Shown: positions 4,106-33,015 of the stretch, one piece after another | Numbering within the stretch: position 1 is the stretch's first letter | Layout: every line of letters begins with the position of its first letter | NCBI GenBank assembly: GCA_034190305.1 | Contig: JAXHSV010000002.1 | Coordinates: 1-37,127 of the forward strand | Reading direction: 5' to 3' | Origin: Planctomycetota bacterium | Lineage (GTDB): Bacteria > Planctomycetota > Phycisphaerae > SM23-33 | Length of the DNA: 37,127 nucleotides | Notes under the pieces: model-generated | What the model saw: the letters and a program-made list of their open reading frames with translations, nothing else | Databases searched by the model: none | What the model was told of the DNA's origin: nothing | Position numbers and translations under genes: made by a program

Positions 4106-4184
4106 ATTTCGTGAACTCGTTGATTCGTGAACTCGCAAACCCGCCGGGACTAACACGCATTCACGAATTCACGAATTCATTCAC
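4106..4184. repeat. Low-complexity palindromic intergenic element, TTCGTGAA family
   Basis: The left arm has ttcgtgaactcg twice (4108-4119, 4124-4135). The right arm has (a)ttcacgaa twice (4159-4167, 4168-4175), the reverse complement of the left word. The right arm overlaps the stop (4177-4179) of the acyl-CoA synthetase gene. Confidence 0.7.
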
Positions 4185-6327
4185 TCAACCTAATTCTCAC
4201 ATCGGCGACATTGCCGCCCTTACCGGCGGGGCCGACGATTAATGGGTTTATATCCAGTTCGGCGATGCGCTCGAAATCAACCACAAGCCGACCCAGTCGC
4301 AGCAGGCAATCCTCCACACCGGCAACGTCGGCGGGACCCGTCCCGCGAGCGCCTTCGAGCAGTTTGTATGCCTTTATCTGGCGGACCATCCGCGAAGCGA
4401 CAGCCGGCGTTATCGGCGCCAAAGCGAATGTTACATCCCTGAATATCTCCACAAACAGCCCGCCCAGGCCGAACATCAGCGTAGGACCAAAGGCGGCGTC
4501 ATGCTTAGCGCCGAGAATCACCTCGTGCCCGCTCGGAATCATTCCGCGAACCACAAAACCCTTAATCCGGGCCTCCGGCATCGCCTCACCGATGTGGCTG
4601 ACCATGTCGTTATAGGCGCTGCGAACTGCATCGGCGTCCCTGAGGTTCAACGCGACGCCTTTGACGTCGAACTTGTGGATAATCTGCGGGCTGACCACCC
4701 GAAGGACGACCGGATAGCCGATCCGTCCTGCGAATTCGACAGCCTCGTCTGCATCGCGGCAAAGTTTATACTCCGGTACGGGGAAGCCATAGGCCTTCAG
4801 AACCGCCAACGCCTGGTCTTCATCGAGGTATCCGCCCGGCGCCGAGTCAATGACGGAAGCGGCGACCTGGTAATCGACTGAGGGGGGTTGATAATCCGCC
4901 TCTTCCGGCGACTCGCGCCACCGGCGGATACGCTGAAGGTCGGACATGGCCCGACAGGCCCATTCCGGAAGGATATAATGGGGGATGTTGGCAGCCTGAA
5001 GAATATCCACACCCGGCGCCACATCGGTAGCGCCCATGAACGAACAGGCAATCGGCTTGTCGGTGCCCTCGTGGACCTTGCAGATACCACGCGCAATCTC
5101 CTCGATGTCCGTCATGGACTGAGGGGTAAGGATGACCAGCGTCTGGTCAACATTGGGATCGTCCAGTACTGCCTGCAGCGCCAAGACGTAACGGTCAACA
5201 CGTGCGTCACCTATGACATCGACGGGGTTTTTCACGTTGGCTGCAGCCGGTAGCGCTTCAGCCAGTTTTTTCGTTGTTTCCGGCTGGAAGCGTGCAATCT
5301 CCAGCCCTACTTTCACAGCCGCATCGGTCGCCATCACGCCCGGACCGCCGGCGTTGGTAACAATGGCCAGGCGGTTGCCCTTCGGCATGGGTTGAGAGGT
5401 CAGCATGGTGGCGGTGTTGAACAATTCCTCAATGCTGTTCGCGCGGACAATGCCCGCCTCAAGAAAGACTTCGTCGCATATGGCGTCCTCCCCGGCCAGC
5501 GAACCGGTATGGCTGGACGCGGCGTCAGCGCCCTGCGGCGTCCTTCCGCTTTTAATCGCAAGTATCGGTTTGGGATTGTCGCCGCGAGTAACGCGTCTGG
5601 CTGTCTCTATCAACGCCCGACCGTCGCGGAGTTCCTCAAGGTACAGCAGAATCACGTCGGTCTGTTCGTCCTGGTGAAGGTAGTCCAGCAGGCCCATCTC
5701 CGTTACGCCGGCCTTGTTTCCGAAACTCACAAATTTGGAAAAACCTATGTTCCTGTTACGGGCGTAATCAAGAACGGCTGTACATAGTGCGCCGGACTGG
5801 CTGAGGAAAGCAATCCGCCCCCCTGCCGGCATCTTGCGGGCAAAGGAGGCGTTCAGAACTATCTTCGGGTCGGTATTTATGACGCCCAGACAGTTAGGCC
5901 CGACGAGAGAGATGTCGTACTCGGCGCAGATTTCCTTAATCTCCTGCTCGCGTTTTTCACCCTCCGGGCCGACCTCGCGGAAACCGGCAGAGATGATTAT
6001 CACGCCCTTGACGCCCTTTTCTCCGCATTGTCGAAGCGCCCTTGCCATGACATTGGCGGGAAAAACTATCACCGCAAGGTCAATGTCGTCCTTGATATCC
6101 GTCAGATACCGGTAGGCCGGAACCGCGCTTATGCTGCGCTTGCCCGGCGCGACCGGATACAACACGCCCTTGTACCCGCTGGCGAGGATGTTGTAGAAAA
6201 TGTCGTACGGCACGGTCCCGGGCGTCTGGGTAACGCCCATAACCGCGACGCTTACAGGATTGAAGATACGGTCGCGCGGATACCCGCCGGGGATAGTCTC
6301 TACAGAATACTTAGTTGTGTTAGGCAT
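4177..6327 (-). CDS. ADP-forming (NDP-forming) acetyl/acyl-CoA synthetase, fused alpha-beta form
   Basis: 716 aa. N-terminal CoA-binding domain, succinyl-CoA-synthetase-like phosphohistidine motif SSHTGSLAG, and a C-terminal ATP-grasp domain (GYPVVLRVVSPQIIHKFDVKGV...ELDINPL). Confidence 0.85.
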   Translation of the reverse strand: MPNTTKYSVETIPGGYPRDRIFNPVSVAVMGVTQTPGTVPYDIFYNILASGYKGVLYPVAPGKRSISAVPAYRYLTDIKDDIDLAVIVFPANVMARALRQCGEKGVKGVIIISAGFREVGPEGEKREQEIKEICAEYDISLVGPNCLGVINTDPKIVLNASFARKMPAGGRIAFLSQSGALCTAVLDYARNRNIGFSKFVSFGNKAGVTEMGLLDYLHQDEQTDVILLYLEELRDGRALIETARRVTRGDNPKPILAIKSGRTPQGADAASSHTGSLAGEDAICDEVFLEAGIVRANSIEELFNTATMLTSQPMPKGNRLAIVTNAGGPGVMATDAAVKVGLEIARFQPETTKKLAEALPAAANVKNPVDVIGDARVDRYVLALQAVLDDPNVDQTLVILTPQSMTDIEEIARGICKVHEGTDKPIACSFMGATDVAPGVDILQAANIPHYILPEWACRAMSDLQRIRRWRESPEEADYQPPSVDYQVAASVIDSAPGGYLDEDQALAVLKAYGFPVPEYKLCRDADEAVEFAGRIGYPVVLRVVSPQIIHKFDVKGVALNLRDADAVRSAYNDMVSHIGEAMPEARIKGFVVRGMIPSGHEVILGAKHDAAFGPTLMFGLGGLFVEIFRDVTFALAPITPAVASRMVRQIKAYKLLEGARGTGPADVAGVEDCLLRLGRLVVDFERIAELDINPLIVGPAGKGGNVADVRIRLSE

Positions 6328-6353
6328 TCATCGCCTCGTCGGTCATTTTCGAT

Positions 6354-6463
6354 TCGTCGCCGCATCGTCGCCGTATCGTCGCCGCATCGTCGCCGTATCG
6401 TCGCCGTATCGTCGCCGTACCGGCGACGTACCGTCGCCGTATCGTCGCCGTACCGGCGACGGC
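6354..6463. repeat. Tandem repeat of 10 x 11 bp (consensus TCGTCGCCGTA), with two units inverted so that two identical 8-bp-stem hairpins form
   Basis: Units read directly from the sequence, starting at 6354, 6365, 6376, 6387, 6398, 6409, 6420, 6431, 6442 and 6453. The sequence cgtcgccgTACcggcgacg occurs at 6410-6428 and again at 6443-6461. Confidence 0.9.
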
Positions 6464-6479
6464 TAAACATTATAGATTA

Positions 6480-7763
6480 TTATTTTTTCGTCATTTTCCG
6501 CCGGCCTCGAAGGAGGGCTTCGTCGCGGACCGGAGCGGTAATCTCAAAAATCGCTTCCCACATCGCCTGCTCGGTATCGGTCCATTGGCGCTTGCGCCGG
6601 CCCATGGCTATCGCCGCTGTCTCGTACAGTTTCTTTCTTCCGAAGCCCTTTGTAACCACGCCGTCGAGAAACCATGCGAAGGAGGGAATGAACTTCGGCA
6701 ACGGTTTGCCTGTGGGCATAATCAGCGCCATGGCGCCGACGTAGGAACCGGTATTCAGCAGTGTACCGATGGCGGTCTTGGTGTGGTCGCCGATGAGCGA
6801 GCCGACCTTAGTCGAACCGGTGTTTATCGGTCTCCTGCCGTTCAGCATGACCGATACGTCGGAATAGTCATTCTTCAGGTCGCTGTTGGTAGTCAAAGCG
6901 CCGAGGTTGACCCATTCGCCGACGTACGCATGGCCCAGGAAGCCGTCGTGATACTTGTTGGAGTAGCCCTGGATGATGGACTCTTCGACCTCGCCGCCGA
7001 TTCGGCAGACCGGTCCGATACTGTTGCCTTCGCGGCACTTGGCGCCCAGAAGGATCGATTTTTTACCGACGTAGCATGGACCTTCAATCCGCGTGAACGG
7101 GTGGACTTCGACATCCTCATCGAGATATACAGGCCCGTTTTCAGCGTCAATTACAACCATCGGATGTATGACAGCGCCTGCGGCGACGAAGACATCCTTT
7201 TTGCCGCCGCGGATTGCGCCGGGCTGCTCGACGGTCCCTTCGATACCGCTGCGTCCGGCGGAGTTGAAATCCTCGGTCAACTGCTCCGGATTGGACAACA
7301 CCAGGTCCCAGATGTAATTCCACGTCTGCAACTCCGGCGTAACCGTCGGAAGCGACGCGGCGGCTGATTCCAGCAACTCGTCAATCCCGCCGGTTTTTAC
7401 TTTTCCCAGGTCGCCGGCGGCGATTCGCGCATAGAGCACTTCGCCGTCTTCGGCAACACCGACTTCGCTCGGACCGGTCGGCGAGACATCAAAACCGGCT
7501 GCCTTTACCCGGCCGTTGACGATGAATAAATCGTCGCCGGTCAGCGTAATCGGATCGTTGACCTTCATCTCCGTCCCGGCGCGATACGAATCGGCCATGT
7601 ACGGCTCGACGAAGCAGGCTACATCGTCTGCGCCGATCTTCGCGATTAGTTTCTCGATCAGCGTGTTTATTCCGCATCGCAGCTCCCATATGGGCCTGCT
7701 CAACGACAGCGGGTGGAAATTCGCCCTCCTGGCGGAAGGACCTTCAAACAGGATTAACCTCAT
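6480..7763 (-). CDS. putative sugar nucleotidyltransferase with a left-handed beta-helix C-terminal half (NTP_transf_4 / 'alternative bacterial GlmU'-like)
   Basis: 427 aa. The N-terminus MRLILFEG...FHPLSLSRPIWELRCGINTLIEK resembles the family found in Bacteroidota and related phyla. The C-terminal half has hexapeptide-like periodicity (IGPVCRIGGEVEESII..., VGSLIGDHTKTAIGTLL). Confidence 0.65.
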   Translation of the reverse strand: MRLILFEGPSARRANFHPLSLSRPIWELRCGINTLIEKLIAKIGADDVACFVEPYMADSYRAGTEMKVNDPITLTGDDLFIVNGRVKAAGFDVSPTGPSEVGVAEDGEVLYARIAAGDLGKVKTGGIDELLESAAASLPTVTPELQTWNYIWDLVLSNPEQLTEDFNSAGRSGIEGTVEQPGAIRGGKKDVFVAAGAVIHPMVVIDAENGPVYLDEDVEVHPFTRIEGPCYVGKKSILLGAKCREGNSIGPVCRIGGEVEESIIQGYSNKYHDGFLGHAYVGEWVNLGALTTNSDLKNDYSDVSVMLNGRRPINTGSTKVGSLIGDHTKTAIGTLLNTGSYVGAMALIMPTGKPLPKFIPSFAWFLDGVVTKGFGRKKLYETAAIAMGRRKRQWTDTEQAMWEAIFEITAPVRDEALLRGRRKMTKK

Positions 7764-8833: not shown

Positions 8834-8914
8834 TTCATATCTCCCAAATATCGTGAAACTTTACTACTACTCCGTCATTACTAAATCCATGAACAATTCC
8901 GGGCGTTGTTTATT

Positions 8915-8996
8915 CGACACAGAGACACAGAGGAACAGAGATATAGAAAAACACAGGACTTTATTAAATTCTCTGAATCTCTGCGTCTCTGTGTCG
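8915..8996. repeat. Low-complexity palindromic intergenic element, CACAGAG family, copy 1
   Basis: The left arm cgacacagagacacagaggaacagagat (8915-8942) pairs with the right arm ttctctgaatctctgcgtctctgtgtcg (8969-8996). The left arm is nearly identical to the reverse complement of 31641-31664. Confidence 0.8.
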
Positions 8997-9045
8997 TATA
9001 ACCATGCTGACAGATTTAAGGTTGACAGAGTACTGCTACACGCCG

Positions 9046-12359: not shown

Positions 12360-12869
12360 ATGAAGTTTTGCCTTATAGACAGAATCGAACTTATCGAGCC
12401 TGGAAAGCGGATCGTCGGCATCAAGACGCTGTCGCTGGCCGAGGAGTACCTTGCCGATCATTTTCCCGCCTTTCCAGTGATGCCGGGAGTGTTAATGCTG
12501 GAATCACTGGTCCAGGCCGCCGCCTGGCTTGTTCGACTGGAACAGAATTTCTCCAAAAGCATGGTCGTGCTGTCGGCTGCTCGAAACATCCGATACGGAA
12601 ATTTTGTCGCCCCCGGCGGAACGCTGCGGATCGAGGCTGAACTTATCAAAATCGACGGGGACATCGCCAAATTCAAAGGTTCCGGCGCGGTGGACGACGG
12701 GCAAACCGCTGTGCAGGGACGATTCGAACTGAAATGCTTCAACGTGGCGGATTTCTTCGCCCCCGCCGCTGCCGCTGATGAGCGAATAATCGCCCGACTT
12801 AAAGAAAGGTTCAAACTCATCGGCGGTCCTGAAGCACTGACATCGACGGGAGAAAAACCTCATGAATAA
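12360..12869 (+). CDS. FabZ/FabA-like hotdog-fold 3-hydroxyacyl-ACP dehydratase (paralog 1)
   Basis: 169 aa. DHFPAFPVMPGVLMLESLVQ matches the FabZ catalytic His...Glu segment (HFPxxPxMPGVLxxE). Confidence 0.75.
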   Translation: MKFCLIDRIELIEPGKRIVGIKTLSLAEEYLADHFPAFPVMPGVLMLESLVQAAAWLVRLEQNFSKSMVVLSAARNIRYGNFVAPGGTLRIEAELIKIDGDIAKFKGSGAVDDGQTAVQGRFELKCFNVADFFAPAAAADERIIARLKERFKLIGGPEALTSTGEKPHE

Positions 12870-12898
12870 GATTGGTCGGACCGTCTCCGGCAGAAACA

Positions 12899-12927
12899 TT
12901 GACTTTGCCGGAGAGTTTCTCTATATA
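12899..12927 (+). promoter_or_regulatory. candidate sigma70-type promoter in front of the ACP gene
   Basis: TTGACT (12899-12904), 17-bp spacer, TATATA (12922-12927), about 60 bp upstream of ATG 12990. A 7-bp-stem hairpin ctccggc...gccggag (12884-12914) overlaps the -35 element. Confidence 0.45.
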
Positions 12928-12989
12928 GTTCACGTATTATTTTGCTTGAAAAGGCATTGTTTTCGGAAAGAAACAGGAGAATATACGTT

Positions 12990-13379
12990 ATGCCGATGAC
13001 AGAAGATGAGATTTTTCAGAAGGTTACAGAAACGCTTACCGAAGCGCTGGGCGTCGATGATGACGAAGTAACCCCGGAGGCGACTCTCACGGGCGATTTG
13101 GGGGCGGAATCCATCGATTTTCTGGACATAGTATTCAGGTTGGAAAAGGCTTTCGACATCAAAATACCCCCCGGCGACCTGTTCCCGGACAATGTCCTTA
13201 ACAATCCCGAGTTTGTAGCCGACGGGAAACTCACCGACGCCGGAATGGTCAAACTCAAAGAGTCCATGCCGCACGTCGAATTCGGCGATTTCGACCAGGA
13301 CCCTGACGTCAACAAACTTTCGGAACTGTTCAAGGTCCAGACGATCGTCAACTACGTCCGGAACAAGACCGCCGGATAA
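12990..13379 (+). CDS. acyl carrier protein with a ~45-residue insertion before the last helix
   Basis: ATG 12990 is preceded by AGGAGA (12975-12980). MPMTEDEIFQKVTETLTEALGV...LTGDLGAESIDFLDIVFRLEKAF is a standard ACP core with the DLGAES attachment site. It is followed by a PPGDLF...DVNKLSELF segment, then FKVQTIVNYV. Confidence 0.8.
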   Translation: MPMTEDEIFQKVTETLTEALGVDDDEVTPEATLTGDLGAESIDFLDIVFRLEKAFDIKIPPGDLFPDNVLNNPEFVADGKLTDAGMVKLKESMPHVEFGDFDQDPDVNKLSELFKVQTIVNYVRNKTAG

Positions 13380-13387
13380 ACAGCCTG

Positions 13388-13466
13388 AACCATAAGGAGC
13401 ACAAAGAGAAGAAAAACAGATTTTTTGACTCTCTTGTTCCTTGTGTTCTTCGTGTCCTTTGTGGTT
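13388..13466. repeat. Low-complexity palindromic intergenic element, CACAAAG family, copy 2
   Basis: The left arm aaccataaggagcacaaagagaagaaaaac (13388-13417) pairs with the right arm ctcttgttccttgtgttcttcgtgtcctttgtggtt (13431-13466). Both arms start or end with AACCA(C/T)AA(A)GG, as in 11263-11338. Confidence 0.7.
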
Positions 13467-13500
13467 TATTTTTTCTCCGAGCAAATGGAGCCAATCGGTA

Positions 13501-13977
13501 ATGCGTTGGATTTGGATTGATTGCTTCGAAGAGTTCTCCCCGGGCGTATCGGCTACTGCCGTAAAAAACGTCTCACTGGCGGAGGAACACCTGCACGACC
13601 ACTGGGAAGAGTTCCCGGTCATGCCGGTCAGCCTGATGATCGAGGGAATGGCGCAGACGTCGGGGATACTCGTCGGACAGGCGCGCGATTTCCGGGAAAA
13701 GGTTATCCTCGCTAAAATCTCCAAGGCCGAAATCAGCGAACCGGTCGTGCCCGGCGATCAATTAAAATATCACGCCGAACTGGTAACGATTTCCGACCAG
13801 GCAGCAAGTACGCACGGAACTGTCTCCAAAAACGGTCAACCCATCGGCACTATCGACCTGATGTTCTCGCACATAGACCAGAACCTCGCCGGAACAAAGT
13901 TTCCCGAAGAGAACTTTGTCTTTACGGGTCAGTTTCTCAGGTTGCTGGCGGGTTTTGTGGAAGGACCGGGCCGATGA
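13501..13977 (+). CDS. FabZ/FabA-like hotdog-fold dehydratase (paralog 2)
   Basis: ATG 13501 (MRWIWIDCFEEF...) within ORF 13441..13977. HDHWEEFPVMPVSLMIEGMAQ retains the His and Glu. The stop overlaps the next start (ATGA at 13974-13977). Confidence 0.7.
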   Translation: MRWIWIDCFEEFSPGVSATAVKNVSLAEEHLHDHWEEFPVMPVSLMIEGMAQTSGILVGQARDFREKVILAKISKAEISEPVVPGDQLKYHAELVTISDQAASTHGTVSKNGQPIGTIDLMFSHIDQNLAGTKFPEENFVFTGQFLRLLAGFVEGPGR

Positions 13978-15293
13978 GCGAACGCCGCGTCGTCATTACC
14001 GGCCTGGGCGTGGTAACCGCCGGAGGGACGGGCATAGAAGAACTGTTTGAGAACATCTGCGCGAAGAAGCAGAGCGTCAAGCGCATAGACTTATTCGACC
14101 CGTCCGGTTTCCCCTGCCAGGTTGCGGGCCAACTGGACGACTTCTCCGCCAGTAAGTTCGTCCCCCGTAATTATCGCAAGGCGGTCAAGGTAATGGCCCG
14201 CGACATCGAGATTGCCGTCGCAGCCGCCGACCTGGCTGTCCGCAACGCCGGTATCACTACGCGGGGCATCGACGAACAAAACATAGATGTCGAATCGAAT
14301 CGCTTCGGGTGCAATATCGGAGCCGGGCTTATCTGTGCGGACCTGAACGAACTCGGTTCGGCAATAAACACGTCCGTTACCGACGGTAATTTCGACTTCA
14401 AAAAATGGGGCGCCGAAGGCATAAACAACCTCACGCCGTTATGGCTGCTGAAATACCTTCCGAATATGCTCGCCTGTCACGTAACGATCATCCATGGCGC
14501 CAAGGGGCCTTCCAATACCATTACCTGCGGCGAGGCCTCCGGGTACCTTGCTGCCGGTGAGGCGGCCAGAACTATAGCCCGTGGCGCCGCCGATGTCGCC
14601 ATAGCCGGTGGGGCGGAGAGCAAAGTCAACCCGATGAACCTTCTGCGACAGACGCTGCTTGGGCGAGTTGCCACCGGAGGAAACGACCAGCCAGGACAGG
14701 CATGCAAACCATTCGACGCCGATGCCGACGGAACTGTAATAGGCGAGGGCGGAGGCCTGCTCATCCTGGAAGACCAGGCGCGTGCGGACGAAAGAAACTC
14801 GCGCGTTTATGCGGAGTTTGCCGGCTTCGGTTCCGCCTGCGACCCGGACGGGATGAACTACCTCGAAGCACCAAAAGGCGACGGTCTGGTCAGAGCGATA
14901 TCAGCCGCCATTGCCGATGCGGGAATCTCGCCGGATCAGATCAGTCTGATTATCCCCCACGGAACAGGCGTCCCGGCCGAGGACGCCACCGAAGCCGACG
15001 CCATCGTCCGGGCGCTCGGCGAACGGGCTGACACTGTTGCGGTAAGCCCCCTGACCGGCGGGTTCGGAAATCTCTTCGCCGGCGCCGGCGCGGTGCAAAT
15101 TGCCGTAGCCGCCATGGCGCTGCACAAGCAGACAATTCCGCCCGCCGTCAACTTTGAAAAACCCGCCGACAACTGCCGGATGAATGTCCGAAAGGAACCG
15201 GCTGAAGCGAAATTGCAATATGCCCTCTGCTGCGCACACGCCACCGGTGGGCAGAACGCGGCAGTGATTCTGAAGCGATACGAAGGTGATTAA
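13974..15293 (+). CDS. beta-ketoacyl synthase-like protein with a degenerate active site (chain-length-factor-like partner)
   Basis: 439 aa with a KAS I/II fold throughout (RRVVITGLGVV, GPSNTIT.., ADVAIAGGAE, PFDADADGTVIGEGGGLLILE, PHGTG). The canonical Cys position reads Glu (TCGEASG vs ATACTSG). The KSMTGHLLGAAG segment reads LTGGFGNLFAGAG, so Lys becomes Thr and His becomes Asn. Confidence 0.8.
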   Translation: MSERRVVITGLGVVTAGGTGIEELFENICAKKQSVKRIDLFDPSGFPCQVAGQLDDFSASKFVPRNYRKAVKVMARDIEIAVAAADLAVRNAGITTRGIDEQNIDVESNRFGCNIGAGLICADLNELGSAINTSVTDGNFDFKKWGAEGINNLTPLWLLKYLPNMLACHVTIIHGAKGPSNTITCGEASGYLAAGEAARTIARGAADVAIAGGAESKVNPMNLLRQTLLGRVATGGNDQPGQACKPFDADADGTVIGEGGGLLILEDQARADERNSRVYAEFAGFGSACDPDGMNYLEAPKGDGLVRAISAAIADAGISPDQISLIIPHGTGVPAEDATEADAIVRALGERADTVAVSPLTGGFGNLFAGAGAVQIAVAAMALHKQTIPPAVNFEKPADNCRMNVRKEPAEAKLQYALCCAHATGGQNAAVILKRYEGD

Positions 15294-15341
15294 TGTCTAA
15301 TGACCGTTGACTAATTTCTAACGAATGTCCAATGATTAATG
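15290..15341. repeat. Left inverted-repeat arm flanking the four-helix-bundle gene (GACATTAGTCATT word, reverse-complement orientation)
   Basis: taatgtctaatgacc (15291-15305) is the exact reverse complement of ggtcattagacatta (15742-15756). gaatgtccaatga (15322-15334) is complementary to cattggac... at 15706 onward. Confidence 0.8.
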
Positions 15342-15704
15342 CCCAAAGAAGGTAAGAAAGAGTATGACCTCGAGGAGAGAACGGCTCGCTTTGGACAGAC
15401 AGTGATAGCCTTTGCGAAGAAAGTACCCCAAAACCCTGTAACGATATCGCTGATTAGCCAACTGGTAAGAGCCGGAACAAGCGTCGGAGCCAATTATTGT
15501 GAGGCTGACGACGGTGTATCGAAAAGGGATTTCAGAAACAAGATAGGCATCTGTAAAAAAGAATCGCGGGAGTCCAAGCACTGGGCAAGAATGATCGTTG
15601 CGGCAGTGCCGGAATTGAAAGAAGAAGCAAGACCGTTATGTCAGGAAGCAAAGGAACTCCACCTTATATTTGTTTCGATCTTTCGCAGCGCCGGAAGCGG
15701 TTAG
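15339..15704 (+). CDS. four-helix-bundle protein (23S rRNA intervening-sequence protein / S23p family)
   Basis: 121 aa. LVRAGTSVGANYCEADDGVSKRDFRNKIGICKKESRESKHW matches the family signature (QLxRSxxSIGANxxEA...S..DF..K..I..KE..ET..W). Confidence 0.85.
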   Translation: MPKEGKKEYDLEERTARFGQTVIAFAKKVPQNPVTISLISQLVRAGTSVGANYCEADDGVSKRDFRNKIGICKKESRESKHWARMIVAAVPELKEEARPLCQEAKELHLIFVSIFRSAGSG

Positions 15705-15765
15705 ACATTGGACGTTGGACATTAGTCATTGAATAGACATTGGTCATTAGACATTAGTCATTAAG
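15701..15765. repeat. Right inverted-repeat arm flanking the four-helix-bundle gene: two ~32-nt direct repeats
   Basis: gacattagtcatt occurs at 15718-15730 and 15750-15762; agacattgg occurs at 15703-15711 and 15735-15743. The arm is complementary to 15290-15341. Confidence 0.8.
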
Positions 15766-15808
15766 TCAGCAGCGAGAAAGGCAGGCTAATTCAATAGATG
15801 GGTTATTC

Positions 15809-17092
15809 ATGAGACGGCGAGTAGTCATAACGGGCATGGGATGTGTAACGCCGCTGGGACACGACGTGGAATCAACATGGTCGGCCCTTCTGGCGGGCAA
15901 GAGCGGCATCAGCCCAACCGATTTGTTTGACGCCGAGACGTTCCCTACGACATTTTCATCCCAGGTCAGGGATTTTCAACTCCCGGAAGCACTGTCTGAA
16001 ACCGGAAGGCATGACCGCGCCGGCAGACAGACTAAATTCGCCCTCGCCGCCGCCCTGGAGGCGTGGAAGCAATGCGGGCTGGGCGAAGCCGACGGGCACG
16101 ACCCGGCGCGAATGGGCATCTACCTGGGTTCGGGAGAGGGGAGCCTGGACTTCGATAATTTCACCGGACTTTTAATCGACGCCTGGGGCAATGACGGAAA
16201 ACTGGATACCGTCCGATGGGCCAAACTGGCGCTTGAACGAATGAATGTCCACCGCGAGCAGGAACAGGAGGCCAACATGGTGGTCTCACACCTCGCCGGT
16301 CAATTCAATATCCAGGGTCCGGCGTTCAATATTTTGACCGCCTGCGCCGCCAGCACCCAGGCCATCGGCGAAGCGACTATGATCCTCCGCAGGGGCGACG
16401 CAGACGTCATAATGACAGGCGGGGCTCACAGCATGATCCACCCCTACGGCGTAACCGGCTTCAATCGCCTAAACGCCCTTTCGACTCGCAATGATGAAAT
16501 GCTGACAGCATCAAGGCCTTTCGACCTTACACGCGACGGCTTCGTCCTGGGCGAAGGGGCGGGCATCCTCATACTGGAGGAATACGAATTCGCCCGACAA
16601 CGGGGAGCAAAGATACTGGCCGAGATTATCGGTTACGGCTCCAGCGCCGACGCCTACCGCATCACCGATCAGGACCCCAACGGCGACGGTGGCGCCGCCG
16701 GTATGCGGGCCGCTATGGAAGACGCCGGTGTAAAACCCGAGCAGATAGATTACATCTCCGCACACGGAACCAGCACGCCGCAGAATGACTCGGTCGAAAC
16801 ACGAGCAATTAAAGCGGTCTTCGACGACCTGGCGAAAAAAGTTCCCGTTTCGTCTGTAAAAGGTTCAGCCGGACACCTCATCGCCGCCGCCGGCGTAACA
16901 GAACTGATTACCTGCGTGCTTGCCCTGCGCGACCAGATTCTGCCGCCGACGATGAACCTTCACACGCCCGACCCGGACTGCGACCTCGATTACATTCCCA
17001 ATGAACCCCGAAAGGCCGACGTCCGCACCGTTATGAGCAACTCCTTCGGTTTCGGCGGTCAAAACGATACGCTGATCATTACCAACATCTAG
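15809..17092 (+). CDS. beta-ketoacyl-ACP synthase II-type condensing enzyme (canonical Cys-His-His)
   Basis: 427 aa. LTACAAS (Cys), AHGTSTPQND (His), SSVKGSAGHLIAAAG (Lys, His), FGFGGQN. It carries a ~15-aa insertion relative to E. coli FabF around residues 110-150. Confidence 0.85.
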   Translation: MRRRVVITGMGCVTPLGHDVESTWSALLAGKSGISPTDLFDAETFPTTFSSQVRDFQLPEALSETGRHDRAGRQTKFALAAALEAWKQCGLGEADGHDPARMGIYLGSGEGSLDFDNFTGLLIDAWGNDGKLDTVRWAKLALERMNVHREQEQEANMVVSHLAGQFNIQGPAFNILTACAASTQAIGEATMILRRGDADVIMTGGAHSMIHPYGVTGFNRLNALSTRNDEMLTASRPFDLTRDGFVLGEGAGILILEEYEFARQRGAKILAEIIGYGSSADAYRITDQDPNGDGGAAGMRAAMEDAGVKPEQIDYISAHGTSTPQNDSVETRAIKAVFDDLAKKVPVSSVKGSAGHLIAAAGVTELITCVLALRDQILPPTMNLHTPDPDCDLDYIPNEPRKADVRTVMSNSFGFGGQNDTLIITNI

Positions 17093-17152
17093 AGTGCTCA
17101 TCCTGCGGCTTGCAACCAGGCTACCCTGCACGCTACCATAGTCAGTTATATT

Positions 17153-18259
17153 ATGATCGTCATAGCAACAGAATTGTCAACATCGGCCAAACTGTGGGAA
17201 TTCATAACGCATTACTGGGCGGCGCTGGTAATCGCGGCAACGTGCCTGAGCCTGCTGACCTTTGCGCTGCTGCTGCTGACCAAGTACGTCCGCATATGCC
17301 TGAATATCTTCACCGATACCCCCCTGCCGCTGTCCATTGACGCCAGGGATTTCCAGGTAATCCAGGGCGAGGAGGTCCGCTTCCGCAGTTTCGACGGCAC
17401 GAGTCTGAGAGGCATGTGGCTGCGGACGACAAGCGGTACAGATCGCAAGGGAACTATCGTCTTTTGTCATGAGTTCGGTTCCGATATGTACAGTTGCGCC
17501 CGGTACACCAAGCCGCTCATAGAGGCAGGATTTGACATCTTCACTTTCGATTTCCGGGGACATGGGGACAGCAGCCGCCCGCAAAACTACCGCATTCTGC
17601 AGTGGCCTTCGGATAAGGAACTCGAAGACACCCTGGGAGCATGTGCCTACGTGGAGGACTGCCTCTTATCGGCGGGTGAACCGGTACAGATCGGCGTCTT
17701 CGGCATCAGTCGAGGGGCGGGTGCAGCCATTTTGACGGCAAGTTCAAACCGAAACATCGCCTGCCTCGTTTGCGACGGAGCATTCAGCACCGCCGAGACG
17801 CTCCTGACTCTTATGAAGCGCTGGGCATCCATCTTCGGGCGCGTCAGGCTTGTCTATCAGAACCACCCCGATGCGTTCTGGCGGTTCCTTCTGTGGTGCA
17901 TGATGCGATTTGCCCAGCCAAGGCTTGGTCGGCGATTCCCCTCCGTTCGAAAGGCGCTGGAAAATATGATCGCCCGCCCGACAATGTTTATCCACGGTCA
18001 GAGGGACAGTTACGTCAGGCCCGACCAGGCCGAACTGCTCCACCGCGCCGCAGGACAACCCAAATACCTCTGGATTGTCCCGAAAGCCAAGCACAACCAA
18101 TCCGTTACCACCGCGCCTGAAGAGTATGCAGCCAGGACAACCGCGTTCTTCCGCAAGTATCTCGCCGACGAAAATGTCGATGAAGTTGAAATTACCGGCA
18201 AAGCAACCCGCGGGAATTACTCGAAGGTAAAAGACCGCTTCTCGAAGGTTACGCAATGA
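17153..18259 (+). CDS. membrane-anchored alpha/beta-fold hydrolase
   Basis: 368 aa. N-terminal TM helix (WAALVIAATCLSLLTFALLLL), nucleophile elbow GISRG, and candidate acid and His residues in HGQRDSY and KAKHNQ. Confidence 0.7.
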   Translation: MIVIATELSTSAKLWEFITHYWAALVIAATCLSLLTFALLLLTKYVRICLNIFTDTPLPLSIDARDFQVIQGEEVRFRSFDGTSLRGMWLRTTSGTDRKGTIVFCHEFGSDMYSCARYTKPLIEAGFDIFTFDFRGHGDSSRPQNYRILQWPSDKELEDTLGACAYVEDCLLSAGEPVQIGVFGISRGAGAAILTASSNRNIACLVCDGAFSTAETLLTLMKRWASIFGRVRLVYQNHPDAFWRFLLWCMMRFAQPRLGRRFPSVRKALENMIARPTMFIHGQRDSYVRPDQAELLHRAAGQPKYLWIVPKAKHNQSVTTAPEEYAARTTAFFRKYLADENVDEVEITGKATRGNYSKVKDRFSKVTQ

Positions 18260-19908
18260 GCCTTGCGCGTATATTACTTCGACCGGCCGCTCGCATCGCC
18301 GGAATGCGCGCTTCCCGGCAGGCCCGCGCGTTCATGGACTCGCACAGACACACCCGCAGAGTGCAGGAGTCGCTGCTTGACAGGCTCATCAAGGCCGCCT
18401 CCGACAGCGAATTCGGACGCGAACACAATTTCGGCCGAATCCGCTCTTACGAAGATTTCGCCTCCGCCGTACCGATTGGAGACTATGAAACCCACCGCCG
18501 ATACGTCGAGCGTGTACTTTCGGGCCAGGTCGATGCGATGTTCGCTCCGGGGACAAAGATTCGCATGTTCGCCGTTACCAGCGGAACCACCGGTTCGCCG
18601 AAGCATATTCCGGTTACAGAGCAATTCCTCCGCGATTACCGTCGAGGCTGGAACATCTTCGGAATACAGATGCTTAAGGACCATCCCGACGGCTGGCTGC
18701 GAAAGATAATTACGATCGGCTCATCTGCCCGCGAAAACACCAGCCCGACCGGGCTTCCATGCGGCGCCATCAGCGGTCTGCTGGTGGAAAACCAGCAATG
18801 GGTCGTCCGAAAGATGTACCCGGTCTCGCCACAGGTCAACGATATCGGCGATGCCTCCGAAAAGTACTACGCCATCATGCGATCGTCCGTCGCTCAAGAT
18901 ATCGGAATCATCATCACCCCCAACCCCTCCACGGCGGTCAAACTGGCGCAGATCGCACGCGACAACGCCGAGCGTCTTATCCGCGATGTCCGCGACGGTA
19001 CTATAAGCATCTCCGAAGCCGCATCAATCGAAGCAATGAACGGATTGTCGTTTCGCCCGAACCGCTACGCTGCAAAGCGGCTGGAGGAAATCATCCAACG
19101 CCATGGGCAACTCCTTCCGAAATACTTCTGGAACCTCAGTTTCATGCTAATGTGGACGGGCGGAACGGTCGGGCTGTACCTGCCGAGCATCCGCCGCTAC
19201 TACGGCGACGCGCCCATACGCGACATGGGACTTCTGGCCAGCGAAGGCAGGTTGTCGGTGCCCCTGGCGGATAATTCAGCCTCCGGCGTGGCGGAAATCA
19301 CCTCCAATTTTTTCGAGTTTATCCCAGCCGACCAAATCGAATCGGCCGGTCCCGACGTGCTCGGCGCACATGAACTCAGTCAGGGAGAGGAATATTTCGT
19401 CTTGTTTTCCAACTGGTCCGGGCTGTGGCGGTACAATATCGACGACCGCATTCGTGTAACGGGCCGGTTCGGCGACAGCCCCGTCTTTGAATTCCTCTCC
19501 AAGGGTATGCACGCCTGTTCAATCACAGGCGAGAAGATTACCGAGCACCAGGTGGTCCGCGCCATGGAAGCGGCGTCGGCCCGGGCCGGCGCGGGCATTG
19601 AACAGTTCGTCCTGCAGGGGCATTTCGCCGAGACACCATACTATGAGTTACGCATCGAAGCGTCTGACAAGGTGAACATCATATCACTGGCCCAGGATAT
19701 GGACAAGGCCTTGTGCGGGCTTAACGTCGAATACGATTCCAAACGCCGCTCGGGCAGGCTTGGACCGATACGCCCTGTAGGCGTACCGGCGGGCGCCTTC
19801 GCCGAACAGCAGGCCAGGCAAATCAATCATCACCGCAACCGCCCTGAACAGTACAAGCACAAATTCCTGATGACCGAAGTAGTCAATGCCCCGCCAACCT
19901 GGCAATAA
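18256..19908 (+). CDS. GH3 auxin-responsive-promoter-family protein (acyl acid-amido synthetase-like adenylating enzyme)
   Basis: 550 aa. TSGTTGSPKHIPVT, LWRYNIDDRIRVTG and ITGEKITE are typical GH3 (PF03321-type) motifs. The start overlaps the hydrolase stop (ATGA at 18256-18259). Confidence 0.8.
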   Translation: MSLARILLRPAARIAGMRASRQARAFMDSHRHTRRVQESLLDRLIKAASDSEFGREHNFGRIRSYEDFASAVPIGDYETHRRYVERVLSGQVDAMFAPGTKIRMFAVTSGTTGSPKHIPVTEQFLRDYRRGWNIFGIQMLKDHPDGWLRKIITIGSSARENTSPTGLPCGAISGLLVENQQWVVRKMYPVSPQVNDIGDASEKYYAIMRSSVAQDIGIIITPNPSTAVKLAQIARDNAERLIRDVRDGTISISEAASIEAMNGLSFRPNRYAAKRLEEIIQRHGQLLPKYFWNLSFMLMWTGGTVGLYLPSIRRYYGDAPIRDMGLLASEGRLSVPLADNSASGVAEITSNFFEFIPADQIESAGPDVLGAHELSQGEEYFVLFSNWSGLWRYNIDDRIRVTGRFGDSPVFEFLSKGMHACSITGEKITEHQVVRAMEAASARAGAGIEQFVLQGHFAETPYYELRIEASDKVNIISLAQDMDKALCGLNVEYDSKRRSGRLGPIRPVGVPAGAFAEQQARQINHHRNRPEQYKHKFLMTEVVNAPPTWQ

Positions 19909-31589: not shown

Positions 31590-31664
31590 CGACACAGAGG
31601 CGCAGAGAGACAGAGAGTAAAAGAAGAAAAAGATTTTTCTCCGTTCCTCTGTGTCTCTGTGTCG
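31590..31664. repeat. Low-complexity palindromic intergenic element, CACAGAG family, copy 2 (inverted relative to copy 1)
   Basis: The left arm cgacacagaggcgcagagagacagagag (31590-31617) pairs with the right arm ctccgttcctctgtgtctctgtgtcg (31639-31664). The reverse complement of the right arm, CGACACAGAGACACAGAGGAAC.GAG, is nearly identical to 8915-8940. Confidence 0.8.
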
Positions 31665-32872: not shown

Positions 32873-32944
<72 letters not shown>

Positions 32945-32953
32945 TTTGCTGGT

Positions 32954-33015
32954 GGTTGGTAGCCGGTAGTCAGTAACCGGTAAGAACCGGCTACCGGCTA
33001 TTGACTACCGATTAC
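32954..33015. repeat. Low-complexity palindromic element, GGTAGCC/GGTAGTC family (possible tRNA-Gly terminator)
   Basis: ggtagtcagtaaccggta (32965-32982) pairs with taccggctattgactacc (32992-33009), an 18-bp stem with 2 mismatches and a 9-nt loop. Confidence 0.7.

Follow-up and report, generated by a model that had tools for sequence, protein, structure and literature searches.

The 37,127-nt stretch of DNA analysed here (positions 1 to 37,127 of contig JAXHSV010000002.1, assembly GCA_034190305.1, from a Planctomycetota bacterium), henceforth referred to as the window, contains on its plus strand an inserted cassette of ~480 bp at 15287-15768, made up of a left arm, an open reading frame (ORF) and a right arm. 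The ORF, referred to as the IVP gene, encodes a 121-aa protein of the family known from the intervening sequences (IVSs) of 23S rRNA. The insertion point is precisely the stop/start overlap of two beta-ketoacyl synthase genes (KS-like and KS) that are normally coupled; the cassette has the orientation of the operon, and its first heptamer provides the stop codon of the upstream gene. The cassette is mobile, and internal deletion turns copies of it into ORF-less hairpins. With moderate confidence, 15287-15768 is interpreted as one copy of a mobile, selfish, IVS-type cassette that acts through the mechanism proposed below, in which the arms would pair within the operon mRNA.

The limits of the cassette were set by its homology with a related copy in locus L001 and by a dip in G+C content, which was 0.455-0.477 in the intervals scored over the insert vs 0.58-0.635 in the KS genes on either side. 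Both arms, on the plus strand at 15287-15346 (left) and 15701-15768 (right), were located by repeat search; they pair with each other in the minimum-free-energy (MFE) and centroid folds, and Tandem Repeats Finder reported periods of 7, 14 and 32 in the right arm. Each arm is an array of heptamers, a make-up that the first-pass annotation of this DNA had not noticed. The left arm reads as the degenerate series TGATTAA, TGTCTAA, TGACCGT, TGACTAA, TTTCTAA, CGAATGT, CCAATGA, TTAATG, and the right arm as TTAGACA, TTGGACG, TTGGACA, TTAGTCA, TTGAATA, GACATTG, GTCATTA, GACATTA, GTCATTA, AGTCA. Units in the left arm are of the TAATGTC/TAATGAC type, and those in the right arm are of the complementary GACATTA/GTCATTA type. 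The left arm has stops in every frame, contains several short mini-ORFs beginning with ATG, and terminates overlapping the IVP start codon; the right arm starts at the IVP stop codon (TAG, 15702-15704). A candidate promoter within the left arm was rejected, as the one weak match (9/12, with its -10 element ending 3 nt before the ATG) was no better than those in shuffled sequences.

Complementarity of the arms was confirmed at several scales. The 15-nt perfect match described in the first-pass annotation was recovered in full, with taatgtctaatgacc (15291-15305), which overlaps the TAA stop codon at 15291-15293, being the exact reverse complement of ggtcattagacatta (15742-15756). The inner pairing proposed alongside it is real and shorter than claimed, consisting of an 8-bp perfect core (15327-15334/15706-15713) or 11 bp when one G·U pair is allowed. 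The reported duplication in the right arm was also found, as direct copies at 15702-15730 and 15734-15762 that are 90% alike at a spacing of 32 nt. Overall, the arms show 73% complementarity over 60 nt (15287-15346 against 15701-15760), with an alignment score 12.7 standard deviations above shuffles. When 15280-15775 was folded as RNA, the arms paired with an MFE of -146.9 kcal/mol (z = -4.3; 0 of 100 shuffles as good), and the outer helix of the predicted fold (15285-15306/15742-15763) comprised 22 contiguous pairs. Rfam identified no known RNA family in or near the cassette and only three tRNAs across the window.

The KS-like gene (13974-15293, plus strand; Pfam ketoacyl-synt N and C domains) lies 5' of the insert and the KS gene (15809-17092, plus strand; Pfam) lies 3' of it. 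The TAA stop codon of the KS-like gene (15291-15293) falls within the first left-arm heptamer, giving a protein C-terminus of ...KRYEGD. In relatives, the KS-like proteins end in ...KRY(x)(x), and the gene overlaps the next KS gene by ATGA; the window's KS gene retains the ATGA that in these relatives overlaps the upstream stop codon. The 515-nt distance separating the KS-like stop (15293) from the KS start (15809) was verified. For comparison of the junction, relatives of the KS-like gene were collected from 80 species-level genomes (L004-L083), all Planctomycetota. Among the closest relatives with complete KS-KS junctions (L004, L005 and L007-L013; 54-71% aa identity), the KS-like stop and KS start overlapped by 4 or 1 nt (ATGA) in 9 of 9, which substantiates the earlier assertion that the two genes are normally adjacent or coupled, and the cassette was absent at all nine. 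Because the KS genes overlap in these relatives, the 515-bp gap reflects an insertion. At ~60 of the 73 KS-KS junctions the gap was no larger than 56 nt. Beyond the right arm, the 40 nt of spacer that precede the KS start (15769-15808, plus strand) are homologous neither to the other copies, as judged from the alignment with L001, nor to the relatives' junction.

A protein search returned 7997 significant relatives among the best 8000 candidates scored, and by sequence the window's cassette is one member of a huge family. The closest two copies (92% and 89% aa identity) were found in two other assemblies (L001; L002/L003) with nearly identical arms; they occupy different junctions of the same hydrogenase/complex-I-like operon and are both co-oriented with it. 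Aligned with the L001 copy, the window cassette is homologous from AATGTCTAATG (~15291) to ...GTCATTAA (~15764), and the flanks outside these limits are unrelated. Copies with 82-84% protein identity (L167, L169) have a 209-aa gene on one side and an HU gene on the other. L001 has no cassette at the junction occupied in L002, while at the junction occupied in L001, the corresponding L002 sequence (1335-1500) consists of the left arm followed by 5 codons, the ORF's final ~50 nt and the right arm. Near-identical cassettes at other junctions and this ORF-deleted remnant therefore demonstrate that the cassette is mobile and decays into ORF-less hairpins.

Additional repeat structures were observed around the relatives. 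At the L001 junction that carries the cassette in L002, a one-sided heptamer array (6007-6040; GGGACTA, GGGACTT, GGGACTA, GGGATTA) has no inverted partner. A ~240-nt palindromic element with ends TATGACAGCG...CGCTGTCATA is nested within the right arm of the full cassette in L002 (5410-5650). Four loci (L106, L157, L147 and L140) have a second left-arm-like array 3' of the first cassette, downstream of the IVP stop codon, and in L147 and L140 a short ORF-less arm-arm unit stands next; these cassettes therefore nest or stand in tandem. Logan contigs from four marine metagenome runs break within the arms, as would a multi-copy repeat, and neither an empty site nor ends were seen in them. A variant present in contigs of runs X1 and X2 (window 15607-15690) lacks 82 nt from the 3' portion of the IVP ORF, with direct repeats GCAGTGCCGGAA and GCAGCGCCGGAA on either side of the skipped stretch. 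A deletion allele that breaks the frame, or a further copy undergoing decay within the community, could account for this variant.

The anatomy of the cassette was surveyed family-wide in 80 metagenome loci whose proteins have 66-76% identity to that of the window; because some of these loci occupy a common insertion site in related organisms, the counts are partly dependent on one another. Among the 80 loci for which full flanks were available, which include the window, L001, L002 and L028, 69 showed flank complementarity above z = 4, with a median z of 9.5. Autocorrelation peaked at 7, 14 and 21 nt in both flanks, with no such peaks in the coding region, and the 6-mers AATGAC, TCTAAT and CTAATT were common to the left arm and the reverse complement of the right arm. 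The element measures 443-576 bp, often starts with AATGAC and finishes with GTCATT, and in full-length copies encodes only a four-helix-bundle protein of 115-130 aa. The IVP gene was co-oriented with both neighbours at 36 of 51 loci, and with the upstream neighbour in 55 cases (opposed in 12). The distance from the upstream stop codon to the IVP ATG has a median of 54 nt, approximately the length of the arm, which leaves no room for a promoter. At 30 of 41 loci the upstream stop codon lay no more than 10 nt from the first arm base, and in 24 it lay inside the arm. The relatives with IVP bounds number 83 (the 80 metagenome loci plus L001, L002 and L028), and all but one of them have an ORF of at least 100 aa near on each side where the contig suffices; flanked in this way, none looks rRNA-embedded.

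Distant homologues with 30-38% identity, from cyanobacteria (Nostoc, Anabaena) and Bacteroidota (Bernardetia), retain inverted repeat arms built from unrelated unit sequences. The units are clearly heptamers in Nostoc and Anabaena and are short in Bernardetia. On plasmid pNPUN01 of Nostoc punctiforme, four GTCGGAG units face five CGACCTC/CGACTTC units; in Bernardetia, complementary AAATCTAA-type units stand on both sides, and the element lies between fabH and an M20 hydrolase gene. In Anabaena cylindrica (pANACY.01; L165 1300-2070), the gene is located between cas2 and cas1, on the opposite strand, and is surrounded by two nested pairs of inverted AGTAAAA arrays.

The IVP gene (15339-15704, plus strand) was assigned to the S23p/Avd-like proteins by profile searches, a structure model and matches in the PDB. 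Its membership of the 23S rRNA IVS protein family, as given in the first-pass annotation, was upheld by scores of 45.2 bits for PF05635 (23S_rRNA_IVP; cut-off 33.8) and 65.3 bits for TIGR02436 ('four helix bundle protein'; cut-off 24). The sequence matched PDB entry 2RLD with an E value of 1.5e-12, or 1.2e-20 using a profile. The AlphaFold2 model of the monomer (pLDDT 91.3) contains four helices, and Foldseek aligned it with 2RLD (BT_0352, 'S23 ribosomal protein family'; template modelling (TM) score 0.72-0.78 by query and up to 0.85 by target), with 2GSC (Xcc0516 of Xanthomonas; TM 0.72-0.81) and with Avd of the Bordetella phage diversity-generating retroelement (DGR; 4DWL and 8UB7; TM 0.70-0.78). 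Avd was not reached by the HMMER sequence profile, the similarity being too low, and only the fold comparison reached it. A homopentamer is known for 2GSC, 2RLD and Avd.

The mechanism proposed for the cassette is as follows. Lacking a promoter of its own, the cassette would be transcribed by read-through as part of the operon mRNA, in which the arms would pair into a long imperfect stem with the predicted 22-bp outer helix. Such a stem would be the type of substrate that RNase III cuts in 23S rRNA IVSs. The cut would free the ORF-bearing loop and part the flanking cistrons, and, as in the surface helices of rRNA, a cut that is not re-joined would be tolerated at intercistronic sites; this tolerance would explain the sites at which cassettes persist. 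RNase III sites between cistrons occur in phage T7 early mRNA and in E. coli operons. These share with the cassette a long imperfect stem between cistrons and tolerance of a cut without re-joining, and they differ in that the hairpins are short, have a gene-less loop and are not mobile. The IVP protein would be made and, by analogy with Avd, would most likely act on the arms of its own cassette as a pentamer that binds RNA or DNA, serving the maintenance or spread of the element and not the lipid pathway.

The 23S rRNA IVSs of Leptospira, Coxiella burnetii, Xanthomonas and Brucella provide the closest comparison. They likewise contain a PF05635/S23p ORF within complementary arms, carry tandem heptamers of variable copy number before the start codon (GACAGAT in Coxiella), measure ~430-480 nt, and are sporadic and horizontally spread, with ORF-less versions. 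In Coxiella, the 23S IVS is 428 nt long; its tandem heptamers precede the S23p start codon, and the first of these repeats is where RNase III cleaves (PMC4990558). Cleavage of the cassette stem by RNase III is plausible because this IVS, which has the same heptamers, is cut there. The cassette differs from these IVSs in its location between two protein genes of an operon instead of helix 25 or 45 of 23S rRNA, in the clear purifying selection on its protein, and in that RNase III excision has been demonstrated for the IVSs and would apply to the cassette by analogy. Compared feature by feature with a 23S IVS, the cassette is flanked by KS genes instead of lying in a 23S gene, while its arms form a stem in the predicted fold and its presence is sporadic. 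On anatomy the name 'IVS-type' is apt, though the defining location in 23S rRNA fails. The suggestion in the first-pass annotation that an IVS-type cassette had landed in an mRNA operon is supported by the tight orthologous junctions, the presence of the same cassette at other junctions and the Coxiella-like heptamers; the RNase III cleavage also put forward there, with splitting or destabilisation of the transcript, would be a possibility. The observation made in that annotation is confirmed, and its interpretation is partly supported.

Selection on the cassette was estimated from the related copies. A dN/dS of 0.09-0.15 was obtained in comparisons of the window, L001 and L002, so the protein is functional, unlike the decaying Coxiella ORF. 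In 13 loci with a common insertion site, identity was 90% over the outermost 34 nt of the arms, compared with 89% at codon positions 1+2 and 54% at position 3. Arms conserved like codon positions 1+2 are constrained in sequence and not merely in pairing, and these patterns indicate purifying selection on both the protein and the arm sequences. No RNA run containing the window was found. Metatranscriptome contigs mapped to the relative L149 (depth 2-8, at contig level) covered the IVP ORF at 99%+ identity, and ORF-less arm-arm contigs were also among them.

Several results weigh against the proposed mechanism. Mismatches in the arms were random in type (49 sense-RNA G·U, 60 antisense G·U and 199 transversions), and no G·U vs A·C asymmetry was detected among them as a sign of RNA-level selection. 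In 15 loci with a common insertion site the arms barely varied, and the changes were nearly all one-sided, with one clear double change. With no G·U bias and one-sided changes, nothing shows selection on RNA pairing as such; the conservation of arm sequence is at least as compatible with recognition by a protein as with a bare stem. One of the L149 metatranscriptome contigs extends without a break across the left arm, joining the upstream flank to the ORF. The Coxiella S23p ORF appears to be decaying and not translated (PMC4990558), so the rRNA paradigm may not carry over to the protein. As to the means of mobility, no target-site duplication was found outside the arm ends in 40 loci, and no transposase, recombinase, RAYT or integrase was linked to the cassettes in any locus read. 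On the sequence data, a DNA-level or protein-binding role for the arms is no less compatible than one in RNA pairing.

The principal competing explanation, possible although we consider it distinctly less probable than RNA-level processing, is that the arms act mainly at the DNA level as the recognition ends of a non-autonomous mobile element, with the RNA stem as a by-product. The arms would then be symmetric arrays of binding sites or form a hairpin in single-stranded DNA, and would be acted upon by a recombinase or transposase encoded elsewhere or by the cassette's own pentameric protein; some RNA processing would be compatible with this. Arms as strongly conserved as codon positions 1+2, the missing G·U bias and the scarcity of compensatory changes all agree with such a role. 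So do the sharp ends (often AATGAC...GTCATT) without target-site duplication, which recall elements of the HUH/IS200-IS605 or REP type, the ORF-less derivatives, which recall MITEs (miniature inverted-repeat transposable elements), and the breaking of assembly graphs in the arms, as happens with multi-copy repeats. Against it stand the lack of a linked transposase, RAYT or integrase in any locus read and the structure of the arms, whose 5-8 tandem heptamers are unlike known terminal inverted repeats (TIRs). The bias towards co-orientation with the host genes and the abutment of stop codons point instead to a constraint at the level of transcript or translation, and the rRNA-borne members are demonstrably processed as RNA.

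Interpretations that assign the insert a role in its host or in conflict are improbable. Domestication as a regulator of the lipid/polyketide operon, with stem and protein tuning the KS-like:KS ratio or mRNA stability, would suit an insert that uncouples genes translationally coupled elsewhere and a protein under purifying selection. It is hard to reconcile with the absence of the cassette from 9 of 9 complete junctions in the closest relatives, with nearly identical cassettes in unrelated operons, and with the same junction elsewhere holding toxin-antitoxin pairs, an HNH gene and another IVP gene, in the manner of a dumping ground for selfish genes; we regard it as unlikely. Marginally less likely still is a role for the small protein in phage defence or as a toxin or antitoxin, its gene being kept by addiction and the arms regulating its expression. 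The gene is small, mobile and conserved, and shares its operon-internal niche with MNT/HepT and ImmA/DUF4411 pairs, but PADLOC and PHROGs each gave 0 matches for the IVP protein, the gene is single and has no partner with which to form a two-gene toxin-antitoxin or defence module, and the S23p protein of Coxiella is not toxic, having been expressed in E. coli without a growth defect. Chance complementarity in low-complexity, A+T-rich sequence around an ordinary small gene has a negligible probability. The arms are indeed low in complexity and the window has other short-repeat hairpins; the arm score relative to shuffles and the 15-nt perfect match speak against chance, and the recurrence of the architecture at z > 4 in 69 of 80 loci, and in distant homologues with different heptamers, refutes it.

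The favoured IVS-type cassette was also compared with other known systems. Avd is a basic pentamer that the DGR reverse transcriptase requires, and it binds a structured RNA element adjacent to the gene that encodes it (bioRxiv 10.1101/2023.10.23.563531). The IVP protein resembles Avd in its four-helix-bundle fold (TM 0.70-0.78), and the heptamer arms have no counterpart in DGRs. No reverse transcriptase was present among the genes read within 3 kb on each side or in L001 and L002, template and variable repeats not having been searched for. Identification of the gene as a DGR accessory Avd was rejected, the neighbours being FabA-like, ACP, KS, alpha/beta-hydrolase and GH3-like genes with no reverse transcriptase among them. 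MITE, REP, REPIN and IS200-IS605 elements are similarly small, multi-copy and intergenic, with hairpin symmetry and ORF-less derivatives, and REPIN and IS200/605 elements also lack target-site duplications. The cassette differs from this group in having tandem heptamer arrays as arms and one conserved non-transposase gene as cargo, in the lack of a linked RAYT or TnpA, and in its strong co-orientation with host transcription. A MITE/TIR transposon was rejected for lack of target-site duplication (40 loci) and of a cognate transposase in full-length copies, and an integron gene cassette was rejected in view of the inverted arms on both sides, the solitary copies inside operons and the absence of an integrase nearby.

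Intergenic heptamer simple sequence repeats (SSRs) form a further point of comparison. Rehm et al. 2015 (PMC4692102) reported an excess of intergenic heptamer arrays, with GGGAATC in Xanthomonas and GGGGAYT and STRR units in Nostoc/Calothrix. The Xanthomonas arrays include 70-75 inverted pairs and lie between co-oriented genes, ~28 nt from the upstream stop codon; the arrays were described without an enclosed gene and read as G-quadruplex formers, and S23p genes were not linked to them (PMC4692102). Like the cassette arms, these arrays comprise at least four degenerate heptamers, often in inverted pairs, between co-oriented genes and near the upstream stop codon, and both Xanthomonas (PDB 2GSC) and Nostoc (on plasmids) carry IVP-family genes. 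A connection between the heptamer SSR arrays and the S23p cassettes may exist.

The host cluster occupies 12360-19908 of the window and consists of co-oriented FabA-like, acyl carrier protein (ACP), FabA-like, KS-like, KS, alpha/beta-hydrolase and GH3-family adenylating enzyme genes. It is kept across Planctomycetota, in Planctomycetaceae, Pirellulales, Phycisphaerae and Tepidisphaerales. Among loci L004-L083 the KS-like/KS junction is a recurrent landing site for selfish genes. Cargo observed there includes an MNT/HepT pair (L056), an ImmA-IrrE/DUF4411 pair (L079), an HNH endonuclease (L081), G+C-rich palindromes (L017, L075), two small unannotated ORFs (L034, L077) and small membrane ORFs (L042, L052 and possibly L063). 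The insert in L028 is a remote PF05635 gene (37% identity) enclosed by a different set of inverted heptamer arms.

Other short-repeat structures were noted in the window. Two ORF-less hairpins, at 8907-9004 and 31590-31664, have arms of 27-35 nt made of tandem 8-nt units (GACACAGA / TCTCTGTG) with 81-83% complementarity and loops of 21-28 nt; each is flanked by two co-oriented minus-strand ORFs, and the motif is absent from the ~1 Mb of fetched loci. The first-pass annotation had drawn a link between the cassette and such ORF-less palindromes, which is one of analogy: their repeat units differ, and no IVP gene with GACACAGAG-type arms was found in the ~1 Mb of fetched loci. A heptamer hairpin at 32951-33009 (GGTAGCC GGTAGTC ... 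/ ACCGGCT ACCGGCT ATTGACT ACC) lies immediately after tRNA-Gly(GCC) (32873-32944). Nine tandem copies of an 11-nt unit (TCGTCGCCGTA; 89% matches) occupy 6354-6452, between long minus-strand ORFs at 4177-6327 and 6480-7763, and are spanned by a 238-aa plus-strand ORF (6028-6744).

As a class, heptamer-armed S23p cassettes in operons appear to be undescribed in the searchable literature; no prior description of non-rRNA S23p cassettes was found there, most subscription journals being outside its coverage. Their conserved anatomy comprises the heptamer arms, a stop codon given to the upstream gene and the lack of a promoter. In practical terms, the cassettes break the translational coupling of operons, metagenome assemblies break at their arms, and the hairpins they leave behind can be mistaken for terminators or regulatory RNAs. 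A broader and much more tentative proposal is that S23p/Avd-like genes with inverted heptamer-array arms constitute a distinct and very widespread class of mobile cassette, in which the pentamer would recognise 7-nt arrays, as RNA or DNA, for maintenance or spread. An RNA intermediate may be involved, given the homology to the reverse-transcriptase cofactor Avd. The intergenic heptamer arrays and hairpins of Xanthomonas, Nostoc/Calothrix (STRR) and planctomycetes, for long without an explanation, would then be ORF-less relics, and the classical 23S IVSs the small minority whose insertion site was in rRNA.

The origin and function of 23S rRNA IVSs and their S23p ORFs have been an open question since the early 1990s, and the excess of intergenic heptamer repeats in several bacterial phyla is likewise an open question. 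The cassettes described here join three loose ends, namely the rRNA IVSs, the Avd-like proteins and the intergenic heptamer repeats, and suggest that the IVSs of rRNA represent one particular case within a far larger cassette population residing between the cistrons of ordinary operons.

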